Source of the DNA: a virus
Taxonomy: Duplodnaviria > Heunggongvirae > Uroviricota > Caudoviricetes
Reading direction: 5' to 3' (one strand)
Length of the DNA: 22,976 bases
IMG/VR virus record: IMGVR_UViG_2563366959_000008
The notes under the pieces were generated by a model, which saw only the letters and a list, made by a program, of their open reading frames with translations, had not been told where the DNA came from and did not search any database. Both the position numbers and the translations under genes were made by a program. Shown here in pieces: positions 6,674 through 21,718 of the stretch. Each line of letters begins with the position of its first letter. Positions within the stretch are counted from its first letter, which is position 1.

Positions 6674-6800
6674 ACTACAGGCGCTACGTCAGGCGCGCCT
6701 TGATTTATTAACCGGTAAACGGGTGGTGTCTGTCCAGAAAGATGGTCGCAGAATTGAATATACGGTGGCTTCTCTGGATGAGCTTAACCGGGCGATCTGA
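6657..6800 (+). pseudogene. W: Head-tail joining gene W, 5' part (codons 1-46), truncated by the IS insertion
   Basis: ATG 6657 (GGAGGAG upstream) overlaps the 3' end of A; MVTVAELQALRQARLDLLTGKRVVSVQKDGRRIEYTVASLDELNRAI then TGA contributed by the first 3 bases of the IS. Confidence 0.8.
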
Positions 6801-6839
6801 ACCGCCCCGGGTTTCCTGGAGAGTATTTTATCTGTGAAC

Positions 6840-7730
6840 TCAGGCTGCCAGATCATTATTTCCGATGGAAGCATAATAAGCTTTTTCTGCTTCTGCCGGA
6901 GGAATATGGCCCAGCCTTTCCAGCAATCGTCGATTGTTATACCAGTCCACCCACGTTAGTGTGGCCAGTTCCACTTCTGTCCGGTTTTTCCAGCTCTTAC
7001 GGTGTATTACCTCCGCTTTGTAAAGACCATTGATGCTCTCAGCCATCGCGTTGTCATACGAGTCGCCAGTACTCCCTGTTGATGCCAGTAATCCGGCTTC
7101 CTTAAGCCGCTGCGTGTAGGCCAGCGATACATACTGAGAACCTTTATCACTGTGATGGATTGTGCCGGACGGCCGACGGGCCCACAACGCCTGCTCCAGT
7201 GCATCCAGCACGAATGTTGTTTCCATGGATGATGAGACCTGCCATCCCACGATGTATCCGGCGAACACATCAATGATGAACGCCACATAAACGAAGCCCT
7301 GCCATGTGCTTACCCAGGTAAAATCAGCCACCCACAACTGGTCTGGACGTTCTGCCACGAACTGACGGTTTACGCGGTCGCATGCGGCAACGGCTTTCCG
7401 GCTGACGGTAGTGCGGACCTTTTTACCCCGGAGAACACCGGCAAGTCCCATAACTGCCATGAGACGTGCCACAGTGCATCTGGCCACTCTGATACCTTCC
7501 CGTAACAACTGACACCAGACTTTACGCACACCGTATACCTGGTGATTTTCATCGTATACGCGCTGTATCTCTTTCTTCAGCCAGTCATCGTGCTGCGCAC
7601 GGGCACTGCGTTTATCCGGATGATGTCGCTGTTGCTGACAATGGTAATACGTTGACGGGGCAATATGCAGTTCGCTGCATACCGGTCCGACCCCGTACTG
7701 CTCACGCAGCTTATCCAGCAGTGGCATCAT
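6840..7730 (-). CDS. IS3-family transposase OrfB (DDE catalytic domain), expressed as an OrfAB fusion by -1 frameshift
   Basis: 296 aa with an rve-type integrase core (…[31 protein letters not shown]…[11 protein letters not shown]…[18 protein letters not shown]…); overlaps orfA in the -1 frame. Confidence 0.9.
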
Positions 7731-8053
7731 TTTTTCCAGAGGCGGTCGAACTCCGCCTTCGCAAAATAAGCGGAAGCCTGGCGAAGGATATCGTTACTGC
7801 GGCGCAGTTCACGATTTTCACGTTCCAGCTCTTTCAGACGCTGACGTTCAGCGCTGGTGAGCCCACCATCACCGCCCCCGGTATCCCGCTCATGCTGGCG
7901 AACCCAGACACGCAGAGTCTCCGGCGTACAGCCAATCTTTGGGGCAATGGAACAAATTGCCGCCCACTGTGAGTCATATTCATCCTGACTTTCCAGAACC
8001 ATACGAATCGCCCGCTGACGGACTTCGGGGGAAAAACGAGTATTTTTAGTCAT
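7727..8053 (-). CDS. IS3-family transposase OrfA (helix-turn-helix plus leucine-zipper part)
   Basis: 108 aa [22 protein letters not shown]…[32 protein letters not shown]; ends in an A6 run (plus-strand T6 at 7730-7735) that can act as the -1 frameshift site into orfB. Confidence 0.9.
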
Positions 8054-8107
8054 CCTGTTTACCTCTTTCTCAGGGAGTTTAGTCTCCAGGATTTCCGGGG
8101 CGGTTCA

Positions 8108-8176
8108 ATCAATGATGCGGAGTCGGTACTGGGGACAACCCGACGTCGCCGTCGTCCGCTGGGAGTGAGGTTATGA
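8108..8176 (+). pseudogene. W: Head-tail joining gene W, 3' remnant (codons 47-68) downstream of the IS
   Basis: After removing the IS and one ATC copy, the frame continues NDAESVLGTTRRRRRPLGVRL* with its stop overlapping the portal start (TTATGA), restoring a 68-codon W-like ORF. Confidence 0.75.
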
Positions 8177-9765
8177 AACGAACGCCTGTCCTGATTGATG
8201 TGAACGGCGTTCCGCTTCGTGAGAGTCTCAGCTACAACGGGGGCGGCGCAGGATTTGGCGGGCAAATGGCGGAGTGGTTGCCACCGGCGCAGAGTGCCGA
8301 TGCAGCCCTGCTGCCTGCGTTGCGTCTGGGGAATGCCCGGGCAGATGATCTGGTGCGCAATAACGGGATAGCGGCCAATGCGGTGGCCCTGCATAAGGAT
8401 CATATTGTCGGGCATATGTTTCTGATCAGCTACCGTCCGAACTGGCGCTGGCTGGGGATGCGGGAGACTGCGGCAAAAAGTTTTGTCGATGAGGTGGAGG
8501 CGGCCTGGTCGGAATACGCCGAAGGGATGTCTGGCGAGATCGACGTGGAAGAGAAACGCACGTTTACGGAATTTATTCGTGAAGGTGTGGGCGTTCATGC
8601 GTTTAACGGCGAAATCTTTGTGCAGCCGGTCTGGGATACGGAGAGCACGCAACTGTTTCGTACGCGTTTTAAAGCCGTGAGTCCGAAACGGGTGGACACG
8701 CCAGGACACGGTATGGGGAACCGTTTTCTGCGGGCCGGTGTGGAGGTCGATCGATATGGTCGTGCCGTTGCGTACCATATCTGTGAGGATGATTTTCCGT
8801 TCTCTGGGAGTGGACGATGGGAACGGATCCCGCGTGAACTTCCCACCGGGCGTCCGGCCATGCTGCATATTTTCGAGCCGGTGGAGGACGGGCAGACCCG
8901 TGGGGCCAATCAGTTTTACAGCGTCATGGAACGGCTGAAGATGCTCGATTCCCTGCAGGCAACACAGCTTCAGTCGGCCATAGTGAAGGCGATGTATGCA
9001 GCGACGATTGAAAGTGACCTTGATACCGAAAAGGCCTTTGAATATATCGCCGGTGCGCCGCAGGGGCAGAAGGATAATCCGCTTATTAATATTCTGGATA
9101 AGTTCTCCACCTGGTATGACACGAATAGCGTGACGCTGGGCGGTGTCAAAATTCCGCACCTTTTCCCCGGTGATGATCTGAAACTTCAGACCGCGCAGGA
9201 TTCAGACAATGGATTTTCGGCGCTTGAACAGGCGCTGCTGCGGTATATCGCCGCCGGTCTTGGCGTTTCCTACGAACAGTTGTCCCGTGATTACTCGAAG
9301 GTCAGTTATTCAAGTGCCCGCGCATCCGCCAATGAGTCGTGGCGCTATTTTATGGGGCGGCGAAAATTTATTGCGTCCCGGCTGGCCACGCAGATGTTTT
9401 CCTGCTGGCTGGAAGAGGCACTTCTTCGGGGGATTATTCGTCCGCCACGGGCACGTTTTGATTTTTATCAGGCGCGATCAGCCTGGTCACGGGCTGAGTG
9501 GATTGGAGCCGGAAGAATGGCCATTGACGGGCTCAAGGAGGTTCAGGAATCAGTGATGCGCATTGAGGCCGGACTGAGCACGTATGAGAAAGAGCTGGCG
9601 CTGATGGGCGAGGATTATCAGGACATTTTCCGCCAGCAGGTCAGGGAATCTGCAGAGCGGGAAAAAGCCGGACTCTCACGTCCGGTGTGGATAGCGCAGG
9701 CGTATCAGCAGCAGATAGCGGAGAGTCGCAGGCCGGAAGAGGAGACAACACCCCGTGAGACGTAA
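8173..9765 (+). CDS. B: Portal protein (gpB-like)
   Basis: 530 aa, collinear with recalled lambda gpB (ARADDLVRNNG, FNGE.FVQ, FEPVEDGQTRGAN.FYSVME, LQSAIVKAMYAATIES, LLRYIAAGLGVSYEQLSR). Confidence 0.95.
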   Translation: MKRTPVLIDVNGVPLRESLSYNGGGAGFGGQMAEWLPPAQSADAALLPALRLGNARADDLVRNNGIAANAVALHKDHIVGHMFLISYRPNWRWLGMRETAAKSFVDEVEAAWSEYAEGMSGEIDVEEKRTFTEFIREGVGVHAFNGEIFVQPVWDTESTQLFRTRFKAVSPKRVDTPGHGMGNRFLRAGVEVDRYGRAVAYHICEDDFPFSGSGRWERIPRELPTGRPAMLHIFEPVEDGQTRGANQFYSVMERLKMLDSLQATQLQSAIVKAMYAATIESDLDTEKAFEYIAGAPQGQKDNPLINILDKFSTWYDTNSVTLGGVKIPHLFPGDDLKLQTAQDSDNGFSALEQALLRYIAAGLGVSYEQLSRDYSKVSYSSARASANESWRYFMGRRKFIASRLATQMFSCWLEEALLRGIIRPPRARFDFYQARSAWSRAEWIGAGRMAIDGLKEVQESVMRIEAGLSTYEKELALMGEDYQDIFRQQVRESAEREKAGLSRPVWIAQAYQQQIAESRRPEEETTPRET

Positions 9766-11260
9766 TCTTTCACACATTATTGCCGCAGCATTCAATGAAC
9801 CGCTGCTTCTGGAGCCCGCCTATGCGCGGGTTTTCTTTTGCGCGCTCGGGCGCGAGATGGGGGCAGCAAGTCTTTCGGTACCACAACAGCAGGTACAGCT
9901 TGATGCTCCCGGAATGCTGGCTGAAACGGACGAGTACATGGCCGGAGGTAAACGACCGGCCCGTGTTTACCGGGTGGTGAACGGTATTGCGGTACTGCCG
10001 GTGACCGGCACGCTGGTGCACCGGCTGGGGGGGATGCGGCCATTTTCCGGAATGACTGGCTATGACGGCATTGTCGCCTGTCTTCAGCAGGCAATGGCAG
10101 ATAGCCAGGTGCGGGGCATACTGCTGGACATTGACAGTCCGGGCGGGCAGGCCGCCGGCGCGTTTGACTGCGCTGACATGATTTACCGCCTCCGTCAGCA
10201 GAAGCCGGTCTGGGCACTGTGCAATGACACGGCCTGTTCTGCAGCCATGCTGCTGGCGTCGGCCTGCTCCCGACGGCTGGTTACCCAGACATCCCGTATC
10301 GGCTCCATTGGCGTGATGATGAGCCATGTCAGCTATGCCGGTCATCTGGCGCAGGCCGGTGTGGATATCACGCTGATTTACTCAGGGGCGCACAAGGTGG
10401 ATGGCAATCAGTTTGAAGCCTTACCGGCAGAGGTTCGCCAGGACATGCAGCAGCGCATTGATGCGGCGCGCCGGATGTTTGCCGAAAAAGTGGCGATGTT
10501 TACCGGTCTGTCTGTTGATGCCGTCACGGGAACAGAGGCCGCCGTTTTTGAAGGTCAGTCCGGCATTGAGGCCGGGCTGGCGGATGAATTAGTCAATGCG
10601 TCGGATGCCATCAGTGTGATGGCCACGGCGCTGAACAGTAATGTCAGAGGAGGCACTATGCCGCAATTAACTGCAACGGAAGCCGCCGCGCAGGAGAACC
10701 AGCGAGTGATGGGGATCCTGACATGCCAGGAAGCGAAAGGACGTGAACAGCTTGCCACGATGCTGGCAGGACAACAGGGCATGAGCGTTGCACAGGCCCG
10801 GGCGATTCTGGCCGCGGCGGCACCGCAGCAGCCGGTGGCATCCACGCAGAGTGAAGCCGATCGCATTATGGCGTGTGAAGAAGCGAACGGTCGTGAACAA
10901 CTGGCGGCAACGCTGGCGGCGATGCCGGAGATGACGGTGGAAAAAGCCCGCCCGATCCTGGCTGCTTCACCGCAGGCGGATGCCGGACCCTCACTCCGTG
11001 ATCAGATCATGGCACTGGATGAGGCAAAAGGGGCTGAGGCGCAGGCTGAACAACTGGCTGCCTGCCCGGGAATGACTGTGGAGAGCGCCCGGGCTGTGCT
11101 GGCTGCGGGATCAGGTAAGGCAGAACCGGTCTCTGCATCCACAACCGCCCTGTTTGAACGCATCATGGCGAACCATTCACCGGCAGCGGTACAGGGTGGC
11201 GTGCCACAGACGTCAGCAGACGGTGATGCGGACGTGAAAATGCTCATGGCCATGCCATGA
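9755..11260 (+). CDS. C: Head maturation protease / scaffold (gpC-like, S49/ClpP-type serine peptidase fold)
   Basis: 501 aa from GTG 9755 overlapping the end of B; AFNEPL.LEPAYARVFFCAL, GMTGY.GI, AFDCAD.I, VWAL.ND..CSA, GSIGVMM, TLIYSG.HKVDGN as recalled for lambda gpC; the C-terminal third contains three tandem motif copies. Confidence 0.9.
   Translation: MRRNLSHIIAAAFNEPLLLEPAYARVFFCALGREMGAASLSVPQQQVQLDAPGMLAETDEYMAGGKRPARVYRVVNGIAVLPVTGTLVHRLGGMRPFSGMTGYDGIVACLQQAMADSQVRGILLDIDSPGGQAAGAFDCADMIYRLRQQKPVWALCNDTACSAAMLLASACSRRLVTQTSRIGSIGVMMSHVSYAGHLAQAGVDITLIYSGAHKVDGNQFEALPAEVRQDMQQRIDAARRMFAEKVAMFTGLSVDAVTGTEAAVFEGQSGIEAGLADELVNASDAISVMATALNSNVRGGTMPQLTATEAAAQENQRVMGILTCQEAKGREQLATMLAGQQGMSVAQARAILAAAAPQQPVASTQSEADRIMACEEANGREQLAATLAAMPEMTVEKARPILAASPQADAGPSLRDQIMALDEAKGAEAQAEQLAACPGMTVESARAVLAAGSGKAEPVSASTTALFERIMANHSPAAVQGGVPQTSADGDADVKMLMAMP
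10658..11260 (+). CDS. nu3: Nu3-like scaffolding protein, in-frame internal start within C
   Basis: ATG 10658 in the C frame with a strong RBS (AGAGGAGG 6 nt upstream); would encode the C-terminal 200 aa of C, analogous to lambda Nu3 nested in C. Confidence 0.5.
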   Translation: MPQLTATEAAAQENQRVMGILTCQEAKGREQLATMLAGQQGMSVAQARAILAAAAPQQPVASTQSEADRIMACEEANGREQLAATLAAMPEMTVEKARPILAASPQADAGPSLRDQIMALDEAKGAEAQAEQLAACPGMTVESARAVLAAGSGKAEPVSASTTALFERIMANHSPAAVQGGVPQTSADGDADVKMLMAMP

Positions 11261-11296: not shown

Positions 11297-11644
11297 ATGG
11301 TAACGAAAACCATCACTGAACAGCGTGCGGAAGTACGTATTTTTGCCGGTAATGATCCGGCTCATACCGCCACAGGCAGCAGCGGGATTTCCTCGGCAAC
11401 ACCGGCACTGACGCCCCTGATGCTGGATGAAGCTACCGGGAAACTGGTGGTCTGGGACGGACAGAAAGCCGGTAGTGCGGTTGGCATACTGGTACTGCCG
11501 CTTGAAGGCACAGAGACGGTACTGACGTATTACAAGTCGGGGACCTTTGCGACGGAGGCAATCCGCTGGCCTGACAGTGTGGATGAACACAAAAAGGCAA
11601 ATGCCTTTGCCGGCAGTGCCCTGAGTCACGCGGCGCTGCCGTAA
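11297..11644 (+). CDS. D: Head decoration protein (gpD-like)
   Basis: 115 aa; DPAHTAT…TPLMLD…KLV.WDG…AVGIL…TFYKSGTF…AFAG as recalled for lambda gpD; RBS AGGAGG. Confidence 0.9.
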   Translation: MVTKTITEQRAEVRIFAGNDPAHTATGSSGISSATPALTPLMLDEATGKLVVWDGQKAGSAVGILVLPLEGTETVLTYYKSGTFATEAIRWPDSVDEHKKANAFAGSALSHAALP

Positions 11645-11701: not shown

Positions 11702-12730
11702 ATGGGATTGTTTACGACCCGCCAGTTACTCGGTTATACCGAACAAAAAGTGAAATTTCGTGCGCTGTTTCTGGAGCTGTTTTTCCGCCGTACGGTGAAT
11801 TTCCATACCGAAGAGGTGATGCTGGACAAAATTACCGGAAAAACGCCGGTGGCGGCCTATGTCTCCCCGGTTGTTGAAGGAAAAGTGCTGCGTCATCGTG
11901 GTGGTGAAACCCGCGTGTTACGTCCGGGCTACGTCAAGCCGAAACACGAATTTAATTACCAGCAGGCGGTTGAGCGCCTTCCTGGTGAAGATCCGGCTCA
12001 ACTGAACGATCCGGCTTACCGCCGTCTGCGTATCATTACCGATAACCTCAAACAGGAAGAGCACGCGATTGTCCAGGTGGAAGAAATACAGGCGGTAAAT
12101 GCTGTGTTGTATGGCAAATATACGATGGAAGGAGACCAGTTCGAGAAAATTGAGGTCGATTTTGGCAGGTCGACGAAGAATAACATCACTCAGGGTAGTG
12201 GTAAGGAGTGGTCAAAACAGGATCGTGACACGTTCGATCCTACACATGATCTTGACCTCTACTGCGACCAGGCCAGCGGTCTTGTGAATATTGCCATTAT
12301 GGACGGTACCGTCTGGCGTCTTCTGAATGGTTTTAAGCTGTTCCGCGAAAAACTGGATACCCGTCGCGGTTCAAATTCTCAACTCGAAACGGCAGTGAAA
12401 GATCTGGGCGCAGTGGTGTCCTTCAAGGGGTATTACGGCGATCTGGCCATTGTGGTGGCGAAAACGTCTTATATAGCAGAAGACGGTATCGAAAAACGTT
12501 ATCTGCCGGAGGGCATGCTGGTTCTGGGGAATACTGCTGCAGATGGGATCCGTTGTTACGGTGCCATTCAGGATGCGCAGGCGTTGTCCGAAGGTGTGGT
12601 GGCCTCTTCCCGTTATCCGAAACACTGGCTGACGGTGGGGGATCCCGCCCGTGAATTTACCATGACGCAGTCCGCGCCGCTGATGGTGTTGCCGGACCCG
12701 GATGAGTTTGTGGTGGTACAGGTGAAATAA
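11702..12730 (+). CDS. E: Major capsid protein (gpE-like)
   Basis: 342 aa collinear with recalled lambda gpE (YVSP.V.G.V.R…PGYVKPKHE…DPAYRR.RII…KLDTRRGSNS.LETAVKDLG…SARYPK.W.T.GDPAREFTM.QSAPLM). Confidence 0.95.
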   Translation: MGLFTTRQLLGYTEQKVKFRALFLELFFRRTVNFHTEEVMLDKITGKTPVAAYVSPVVEGKVLRHRGGETRVLRPGYVKPKHEFNYQQAVERLPGEDPAQLNDPAYRRLRIITDNLKQEEHAIVQVEEIQAVNAVLYGKYTMEGDQFEKIEVDFGRSTKNNITQGSGKEWSKQDRDTFDPTHDLDLYCDQASGLVNIAIMDGTVWRLLNGFKLFREKLDTRRGSNSQLETAVKDLGAVVSFKGYYGDLAIVVAKTSYIAEDGIEKRYLPEGMLVLGNTAADGIRCYGAIQDAQALSEGVVASSRYPKHWLTVGDPAREFTMTQSAPLMVLPDPDEFVVVQVK

Positions 12731-21183: not shown

Positions 21184-21190
21184 TGACTGA

Positions 21191-21718
21191 TTATTGAATG
21201 ATGCCGCAGGCCATTCTCGCACCACCACCGCCCAGGGGCTCCGGATGGTCATGATGGTTATCACCGCCAGCATGAAGCATGAGAGAACGCCCTTTAATCT
21301 CTTTTAATGAGTTCAGTCTCGGGGCCAGGACCGGGTAGTTCGCTTTTCCGTCATGCGTCACGAACAGCGCAGGGAGGTCGCCCGGGTGTCCATCCGGAGA
21401 CCAGGGGCCAAGATGTTTGCCGGTGTTTTTCGGGTCAAAGTGACCGCCAGCCGATAATGCTGCGACCGGTTTTCCGTCTTTCAGTGCCGGGGCGCAATTT
21501 CCTTTTTCGTGCACATGAAAACCATGAATGCCTTCAGACAGAGAGTGAAGGGCTGGTGTGAACAGCAGACCGTAGGGGGTCTCCTGAATGGTTATTTTTC
21601 CAATGCTGACTTCTTTTCCGTCAGCACTGACAAGGTTCATTGGGACTTCCTGTTCTGCTGCGTATCCGCATGATGCTGCTGTCAGCATGGCAATGGCAGC
21701 AATGATTTTACATTTCAT
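21191..21718 (-). CDS. sodC: Periplasmic Cu/Zn superoxide dismutase (prophage-borne SodC)
   Basis: True start [20 protein letters not shown] (signal peptide) at 21718, 175 aa; copper/zinc ligand motifs [27 protein letters not shown] and [24 protein letters not shown]. The 344-codon ORF in the track is an upstream in-frame extension into antisense J. Confidence 0.9.

Follow-up and report, generated by a model that had tools for sequence, protein, structure and literature searches.

In phage lambda, C is the prohead protease and Nu3 is the scaffold, Nu3 being an in-frame C-terminal product of C. The reported interaction partners of lambda Nu3 are C, E, and Nu3 itself, and portal incorporation requires Nu3 (PMC3224144). 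In addition, lambda gpNu3 is described as intrinsically disordered in the title of Medina et al. 2011. In other phages, the scaffold contacts the capsid protein via small helical motifs to which it binds; P22 gp8 and phi29 gp7, whose small helical internal-scaffold elements touch the capsid protein, provide a functional analogy only (PMC11922011). Tandem three-helix-bundle binding modules, e.g., the staphylococcal protein A domains and the albumin-binding GA modules, are also among the closest systems.

In phage 21, the corresponding head protease/scaffold gene is gene 5, with gene 6 nested in it. GenBank M81255, which we take to be the record of the phage 21 head gene description by Smith and Feiss of about 1993, lists in its feature table three repeat regions that carry the remark "function unknown; putative" and are called "Tri1 box", "Tri box", and "Tri3 box". 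We take the prior description of the triplication from this feature table. The boxes have stood in GenBank for about three decades. For annotation purposes they are of little consequence, being a feature on record for one of the most frequent head genes of E. coli prophages.

Here we analyze the equivalent gene of an E. coli prophage in a stretch of 22,976 nucleotides (IMG/VR record IMGVR_UViG_2563366959_000008), which is referred to as the window. Judged by sequence, the triplication found in the window is already known, since phage 21 has it, annotated as Tri boxes, in its head protease/scaffold gene. What is new is the prediction of a three-helix bundle for the repeated unit, a census of its copy number across the family, and an allelic series in E. 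coli.

A phage-21-type head gene with a nested scaffold gene

The coordinates of the gene and its features are listed in Table 1. The gene is located between a portal gene (8173-9765, 530 aa) upstream and a D-like decoration gene (11297-11644, 115 aa) downstream, which is followed by an E-like major capsid gene (11702-12730, 342 aa). The order portal, C, decoration protein, and major capsid protein is the position expected of a lambda-family C/Nu3 gene. In accordance, the N-terminal part of the protein carries an S49 peptidase domain (PF01343), and the C-terminal part carries the conserved unit and tail of that family. The NCBIfam model SppA_dom also matches this domain (2e-31, under the model's own curated cut-off).

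The gene is 98.5% identical to M81255 gene 5 of phage 21 over 1506 of 1506 nucleotides (98% at the protein level), the near-identity expected of a phage 21-type gp5/gp6 allele, and the same 98.5% identity holds for OL657228, also from phage 21, and for some dozen further coliphage isolates. Its likeness to phage 21 genes 5 and 6 extends to the length of 501 aa, the internal ribosome-binding site and start, the 200-aa product, and the three units; the differences are a few substitutions and the W gene of the window prophage, which an IS element interrupts. On sequence grounds, it is near certain that the head gene is a phage-21-type allele of lambda C/Nu3.

This allele is widespread. RefSeq genes named "S49 family peptidase" match it at 100%, and the exact 501-aa protein occurs on 990 contigs of a public collection. 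In megablast, 2032 of 5426 complete E. coli genomes match the gene, 1866 of them over at least 80% of its length. Among a spread sample of 60 of the best E. coli matches, 52 are full-length (1506 bp). The estimate of length alleles is based on this spread sample of best matches; a junction-based census was dropped, because split matches get joined.

Table 1 Features of the C/Nu3-type head gene in the window.
Feature	Position	Strand	Basis or remark
Lambda C / phage 21 gene 5 homologue, head maturation protease/scaffold	9755..11260	+	ORF, GTG start, 501 aa
Peptidase S49 catalytic domain, aa 146-293	10190..10633	+	Pfam PF01343, E = 5.9e-35
Putative Shine-Dalgarno sequence GAGGAGG of the nested scaffold gene	10647..10653	+	corresponds to gene 6 RBS in M81255 and OL657228
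Nested in-frame gene, phage 21 gene 6 equivalent, Nu3 analogue	10658..11260	+	200 aa, from codon 302 of C
Unit 1, aa 314-359, phage 21 Tri1 box	10694..10831	+	HMM 79.4 bits
Unit 2, aa 367-409, second Tri box	10853..10981	+	HMM 87.3 bits
Unit 3, aa 414-454, Tri3 box	10994..11116	+	HMM 78.9 bits
C-terminal tail, aa 455-501	11117..11257	+	aligns with tails of single-unit relatives

The initial annotation, made from the sequence alone, had placed an internal ribosome-binding site and ATG at 10658 just upstream of the repeats. Both are present, and the ATG coincides with the annotated start of phage 21 gene 6. Translation from the ATG at 10658-10660 is annotated by similarity and should be read as predicted. 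The nested gene is matched by phrog_53, by phrog_8399 ("head scaffolding protein"), and by phrog_8940 ("capsid assembly protein"), the last two each in three stretches. A Shine-Dalgarno sequence and ATG following a "GG[T/R]" motif are found at M302 in the window, M302 in Salmonella Gifsy-1, M311 in N15, and M309 in lambda (tcaggagggcgaATG); M311 is the annotated start of N15 gene 6.

Two side observations concern this region. The start of lambda nu3 as annotated in NC_001416 (position 5132, M239) has no obvious Shine-Dalgarno sequence, and the lambda counterpart of the conserved Shine-Dalgarno sequence and ATG is M309, at record position 5342. In lambda Nu3, it is residues 71-201 that correspond to the 131-aa "head scaffolding protein" of PHROG 8399. 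The Nu3 of the lambda record may, from this sequence comparison, be longer than the conserved start suggests. The other observation is that the minus strand matches the CII pattern TTGYN6TTGY at 10663-10676 and 10897-10910, inside gene 6, and that OL657228 labels two such matches in gene 6 as CII binding sites. The pattern occurs four times in the window, with 4.1 occurrences expected by chance, and the matches inside gene 6 are most likely meaningless.

Three tandem units and a separate tail

The initial annotation had described three consecutive copies of a motif of about 45 aa in the C-terminal third of gpC. All of the peptides it quoted are present, and the copies align with each other. 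Self-BLASTP of the 501-aa protein returns the identity match only, so Smith-Waterman alignment (BLOSUM62) with shuffled controls was used instead. The scores between the units are 95, 77, and 97, compared with shuffle means of about 26 (SD about 5), which corresponds to z values of 9.7-14.3; none of 2000 shuffles reaches the observed value. The possibility that the repeats would fail under a proper scoring scheme is thereby answered. Moreover, an HMM built from the three units finds exactly three matches in the window protein, at 79-87 bits.

The units are 44-54% identical to each other at the protein level and 51-61% at the DNA level, and about 40% of the residues that are identical between units share a codon. 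The low DNA identity and the scrambled synonymous sites indicate that the duplication is old and that the similarity is held at the protein level. The age of the copies also explains why a DNA repeat finder yields only fragments of 12-25 nt. Unit 1 has a 3-aa insertion (VMG) in helix 1, which is shared by the lone unit of lambda. Unit 3 has GAE at the site in the helix 1-helix 2 loop where GRE is found throughout the family.

When transferred to the window, the Tri boxes of M81255 fall on aa 324-358 (Tri1, 10725-10828), aa 371-407 (Tri, 10865-10975), and aa 418-455 (Tri3, 11006-11119). Each box maps to one of the three HMM matches, i.e., the window has three tandem Tri units at the annotated positions. 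A reading of the repeats as a new expansion at this locus does not survive, because a 98.5% identical phage 21 gene is already annotated with three boxes.

The segment behind the units had been taken as a partial fourth copy, on account of its "ALFERIM" sequence. The alignment of this sequence with any of the units is no better than with shuffles (z from -1.7 to 0.6), and an hhalign profile-profile comparison of unit and tail gives a probability of 0.4%. Instead, ALFERIM is an element of a family-wide tail, which holds the ALFERIM helix (aa 465-471, 11147-11167) and the terminal KMLMAMP. ALFERIM aligns with the tail element of single-unit relatives, i.e., TALDRLM of lambda and the corresponding segments of N15 and PhAER-1. 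The M of ERIM is nearly invariant in 30 diverse tails. The conserved tail behind the units, and not the units, could be the actual capsid-targeting element.

Predicted fold of the unit

The PHROGs families that contain the unit are named head scaffolding protein, capsid assembly protein, and head maturation protease. No Pfam family covers the unit. The helix-hairpin-helix family HHH was tried as an identification and rejected, since its matches reach 13-14.8 bits and miss the gathering cut-off of 24. A sequence search of the PDB with the unit gives no related chain, the only matches being chance matches to designed helical repeats.

AlphaFold2 was run at two scales. When given all 200 aa of the scaffold region and a shallow alignment, it gives helices and no confident fold (pLDDT 52.6). 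The low pLDDT agrees with the reported disorder of lambda gpNu3 when alone. For unit 1 (aa 309-364), with an alignment of 81 units drawn from the whole family, the pLDDT is 88.8 and the pTM is 0.69, and the model has three helices (construct residues 2-14, 23-30, and 37-46). The unit is therefore confidently predicted to fold as a small three-helix bundle, a bundle that may form only on binding. The nearly invariant positions of the unit are those of the hydrophobic core (I, A, A, A, L) and an E-A-x-G-R motif in the connection between helices 1 and 2.

Fold searches used the single-unit model only, because the whole-region model is of low confidence. They return generic three-helix bundles only. 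The predicted structures of other viral S49 prohead proteases contain the unit fold, with TM scores of 0.83-0.91. P22 gp8 and phi29 gp7 match the unit neither in sequence nor in fold. The unit is predicted as a three-helix bundle and not as a helix-turn-helix, it does not sit at the extreme C-terminus, and a protease is fused to it. Assignment to the P22-type coat-binding domain, an extreme C-terminal helix-turn-helix homologous to gp8, is accordingly rejected.

One unit is the rule in the family

Lambda C (NC_001416 4418-5737, 439 aa) is 59% identical to the window protein. It resembles the window protein in the S49 domain, the nested-gene layout, the unit itself (55.7 bits), the tail type, and the gene neighborhood. 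However, it has a single unit (aa 357-400), which follows a long low-complexity linker. Compared with lambda, the window protein has two extra units and lacks the Ala/Thr/Ser-rich linker of about 36-50 aa. The initial annotation had described lambda C/Nu3 as single-copy, which is borne out by the one unit found. Its further statement that an expansion lengthens gpC to 501 aa is right relative to the 439 aa of lambda, but the expansion is not new to the locus. A lambda-like build with one unit is also found in N15 and phi80 (447 aa each) and in PhAER-1 of Aeromonas (440 aa).

Gifsy-1 STM2605 of Salmonella (498 aa) has three units in the same order, each closest to its counterpart in the window, and an internal Shine-Dalgarno sequence and ATG at codon 302, as in the window. 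It differs in that the scaffold part is 57.5% identical and that unit 3 retains GRE where the window has GAE. More distant enterobacterial relatives (46-62% identity) likewise have three units. Since three units are common to the phage 21 type, Gifsy-1, and these distant relatives, the triplication predates the divergence of the lineages.

To determine how common three units are, we searched 1.84 billion representative proteins with a profile of the three window units at E ≤ 1e-3. This exhaustive search of representatives was chosen because word-index searches with the 200-aa region or the unit profile give mostly fragments of at most 81 aa. The census retrieves 478 proteins. Among the 136 new sequences in the best 150 matches, 128 have one unit, five have two, and three have three. 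Lambda-type C proteins in general do not carry three repeats, an alternative under which the triplication would have been unremarkable; a single copy is the norm, and the triplicated form is the mark of one very abundant clade.

The census matches are of two kinds, i.e., S49 proteins of 400-550 aa in which about 50 residues separate the unit from the C-terminus, and shorter proteins that are colinear with the S49 C-terminal part and represent nested Nu3-type calls or fragments. Unit-bearing proteins of 100-250 aa were considered as a separate standalone scaffold family. This was rejected, since most of them align colinearly with the end of an S49 protein.

A two-unit protein of 198 aa (P0283) comes from a different lineage, indicating that duplication happened more than once. 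P0283 is related to a 75-aa protein of Bradyrhizobium sp. th.b2 (P0238; AUGA01000070, 6001-6228) that is barely more than one unit, and its two units represent an independent duplication. The Bradyrhizobium gene belongs to a small phage-like element, where it precedes an ORF of 292 aa and a tape-measure gene of 846 aa, with no recognizable S49 protease or capsid gene nearby. A search for related loci in viral contigs with another protein (P0317) gave no match.

Natural length alleles in E. coli and Shigella

The repeat array in E. coli and Shigella prophages is a hotspot of length variants, with in-register deletions and duplications as well as out-of-register deletions. The 451-aa allele has two units and is an in-register chimera of units 1 and 2 that removes exactly 50 aa. 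The 551-aa allele has four units and contains an exact 50-aa tandem duplication. In the 482-aa allele, found on at least 1000 contigs (3592 listed blocks), an out-of-register deletion of 19 aa truncates unit 2 and leaves about 2.5 units. A 472-aa allele (P0200) also exists among the E. coli/Shigella relatives. The head gene cluster is the same for all length alleles, as is its 342-aa capsid protein. Alleles with one, two, about 2.5, three, and four units in otherwise near-identical head clusters allow simple genetic and binding experiments.

All 19 isolated-phage records with this gene have the three-unit length. The shortened 451-aa and 482-aa alleles are absent from these 19 records, which give split matches only. 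The shortened alleles are therefore seen in bacterial genomes only, so that a phage may or may not tolerate a change in copy number. A 657-aa protein (P0094) has six unit matches and a duplication of 156 aa that includes part of the protease end; it may be a rearrangement or an assembly artefact.

Proposed role of the units

The unit is the sole strongly conserved element in the scaffold region, and as such it provides a handle on the old question of how scaffold and protease are held in the procapsid. By virtue of the shared C-terminus, protease and scaffold are given the same address inside the shell, and the unit, as the conserved core of this shared region, is the best candidate for an interaction module. 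We infer the following arrangement, in which the interaction partner and the effect of copy number are uncertain. An N-terminal S49 serine protease is followed by the scaffold region, and the latter would also be made alone, as a 200-aa product, from the internal start. The array derives from an old tandem triplication and takes the place of the low-complexity linker and single module of lambda. In each copy, the predicted three-helix bundle has a conserved charged loop, E-A-K-G-R-E, that joins helices 1 and 2. The modules would act as protein-protein interaction units within the procapsid and tether scaffold and protease to the shell, with the major capsid protein as the most likely partner; they may also tether the two to one another. 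Three copies would supply redundant or multivalent binding, and the protease would degrade the whole region at maturation.

We put the probability at about 0.55 that the three tandem modules are redundant or multivalent interaction units of the internal scaffold in a phage-21-type C/Nu3 allele. Weighing against it are the low-confidence model of the scaffold region and the reported disorder of gpNu3, the conserved tail as a rival targeting element, the uniform three-unit length in the isolated-phage records, and the probable defect of the window prophage. Redundancy is suggested by the natural alleles, which carry two, about 2.5, three, and four units, and by lambda, which works with one. Alternatively, the extra units could be mainly spacer or filler that replaces the lambda linker and sets the reach or volume of the scaffold, with only one unit or only the tail making the specific contacts. 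Such a spacer would fit the linker of 36-55 aa, rich in Ala, Thr, Ser, and Val, that single-unit relatives have where three-unit proteins have none, the conservation of the C-terminal tail across the family, and the very common 482-aa allele, whose truncation of unit 2 should break that bundle. However, the core and loop residues of all three units are kept between phage 21 and Gifsy-1 at 57% identity, a divergence at which one would predict a mere spacer to have decayed into low-complexity sequence like that of lambda, and the isolated-phage records are free of shortened alleles. We consider a spacer role rather unlikely. It is unlikely, in our estimate, that the units mediate self-association of the scaffold or recruitment of the portal instead of capsid binding, so that triplication would alter the oligomeric state or the nucleation complex. 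The reported Nu3-Nu3 and Nu3-C interactions of lambda and the need of Nu3 for portal incorporation point in this direction (PMC3224144), as does the fact that, in the loci compared, the unit is always accompanied by an S49 module and a portal of the lambda type. Nevertheless, an interaction of Nu3 with E is reported in the same work (PMC3224144), the co-occurrence is equally true of the E-type capsid protein, and the sequence does not separate the partners.

A bolder proposal sees in the unit a three-helix "scaffold core" domain, common to the family and so far without a name, whose copy number, from one to four, tunes the engagement of the shell by scaffold and protease, with the length variants reflecting selection. 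If true, the variants in prophages would speak of assembly fidelity or of escape from capsid-hijacking satellites or defence, and not of the decay of dead prophages; we regard this as very improbable. Least credible of all is that the similarity is a by-product of Ala-rich composition or that the repeat acts at the DNA or RNA level, as regulatory sites or recombination targets. The region is indeed Ala-rich, OL657228 annotates its two CII-pattern matches within gene 6, and in-register unequal crossing-over between units gave length variants. Yet composition-preserving shuffles never reach the observed scores, the unit profile retrieves its 478 relatives specifically, the inter-unit DNA is diverged with scrambled synonymous sites, and the CII pattern occurs at chance level (4 vs 4.1 expected). 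Redundant or multivalent interaction units of the scaffold are the reading that we retain.

Other features of the window

An IS3-family element of 1,310 bp lies on the minus strand at about 6798-8107, within the region 6657-8175. Its transposase orfB (6840-7730) matches NF033516 with E = 1e-92, and its ends carry terminal inverted repeats (TGAACCGCCCCGG...) and a 3-bp target duplication. The insertion lies behind codon 47 of W, the head completion gene that corresponds to phage 21 gene 3, and taking out the element together with 3 bp restores an intact W of 68 aa. Because W is interrupted, the window prophage is probably defective. E. coli O145 RM9872 has the same IS at another site in a prophage that is otherwise 98-99% identical.

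Genes for Cu/Zn superoxide dismutase, sodC, are a known kind of cargo gene in the lambdoid prophages of EHEC. The window has a putative sodC on the minus strand at about 21190-21717, between a tail assembly gene and the J tail-tip gene, as judged from the annotation of a 98% identical stretch in NZ_CP028379.
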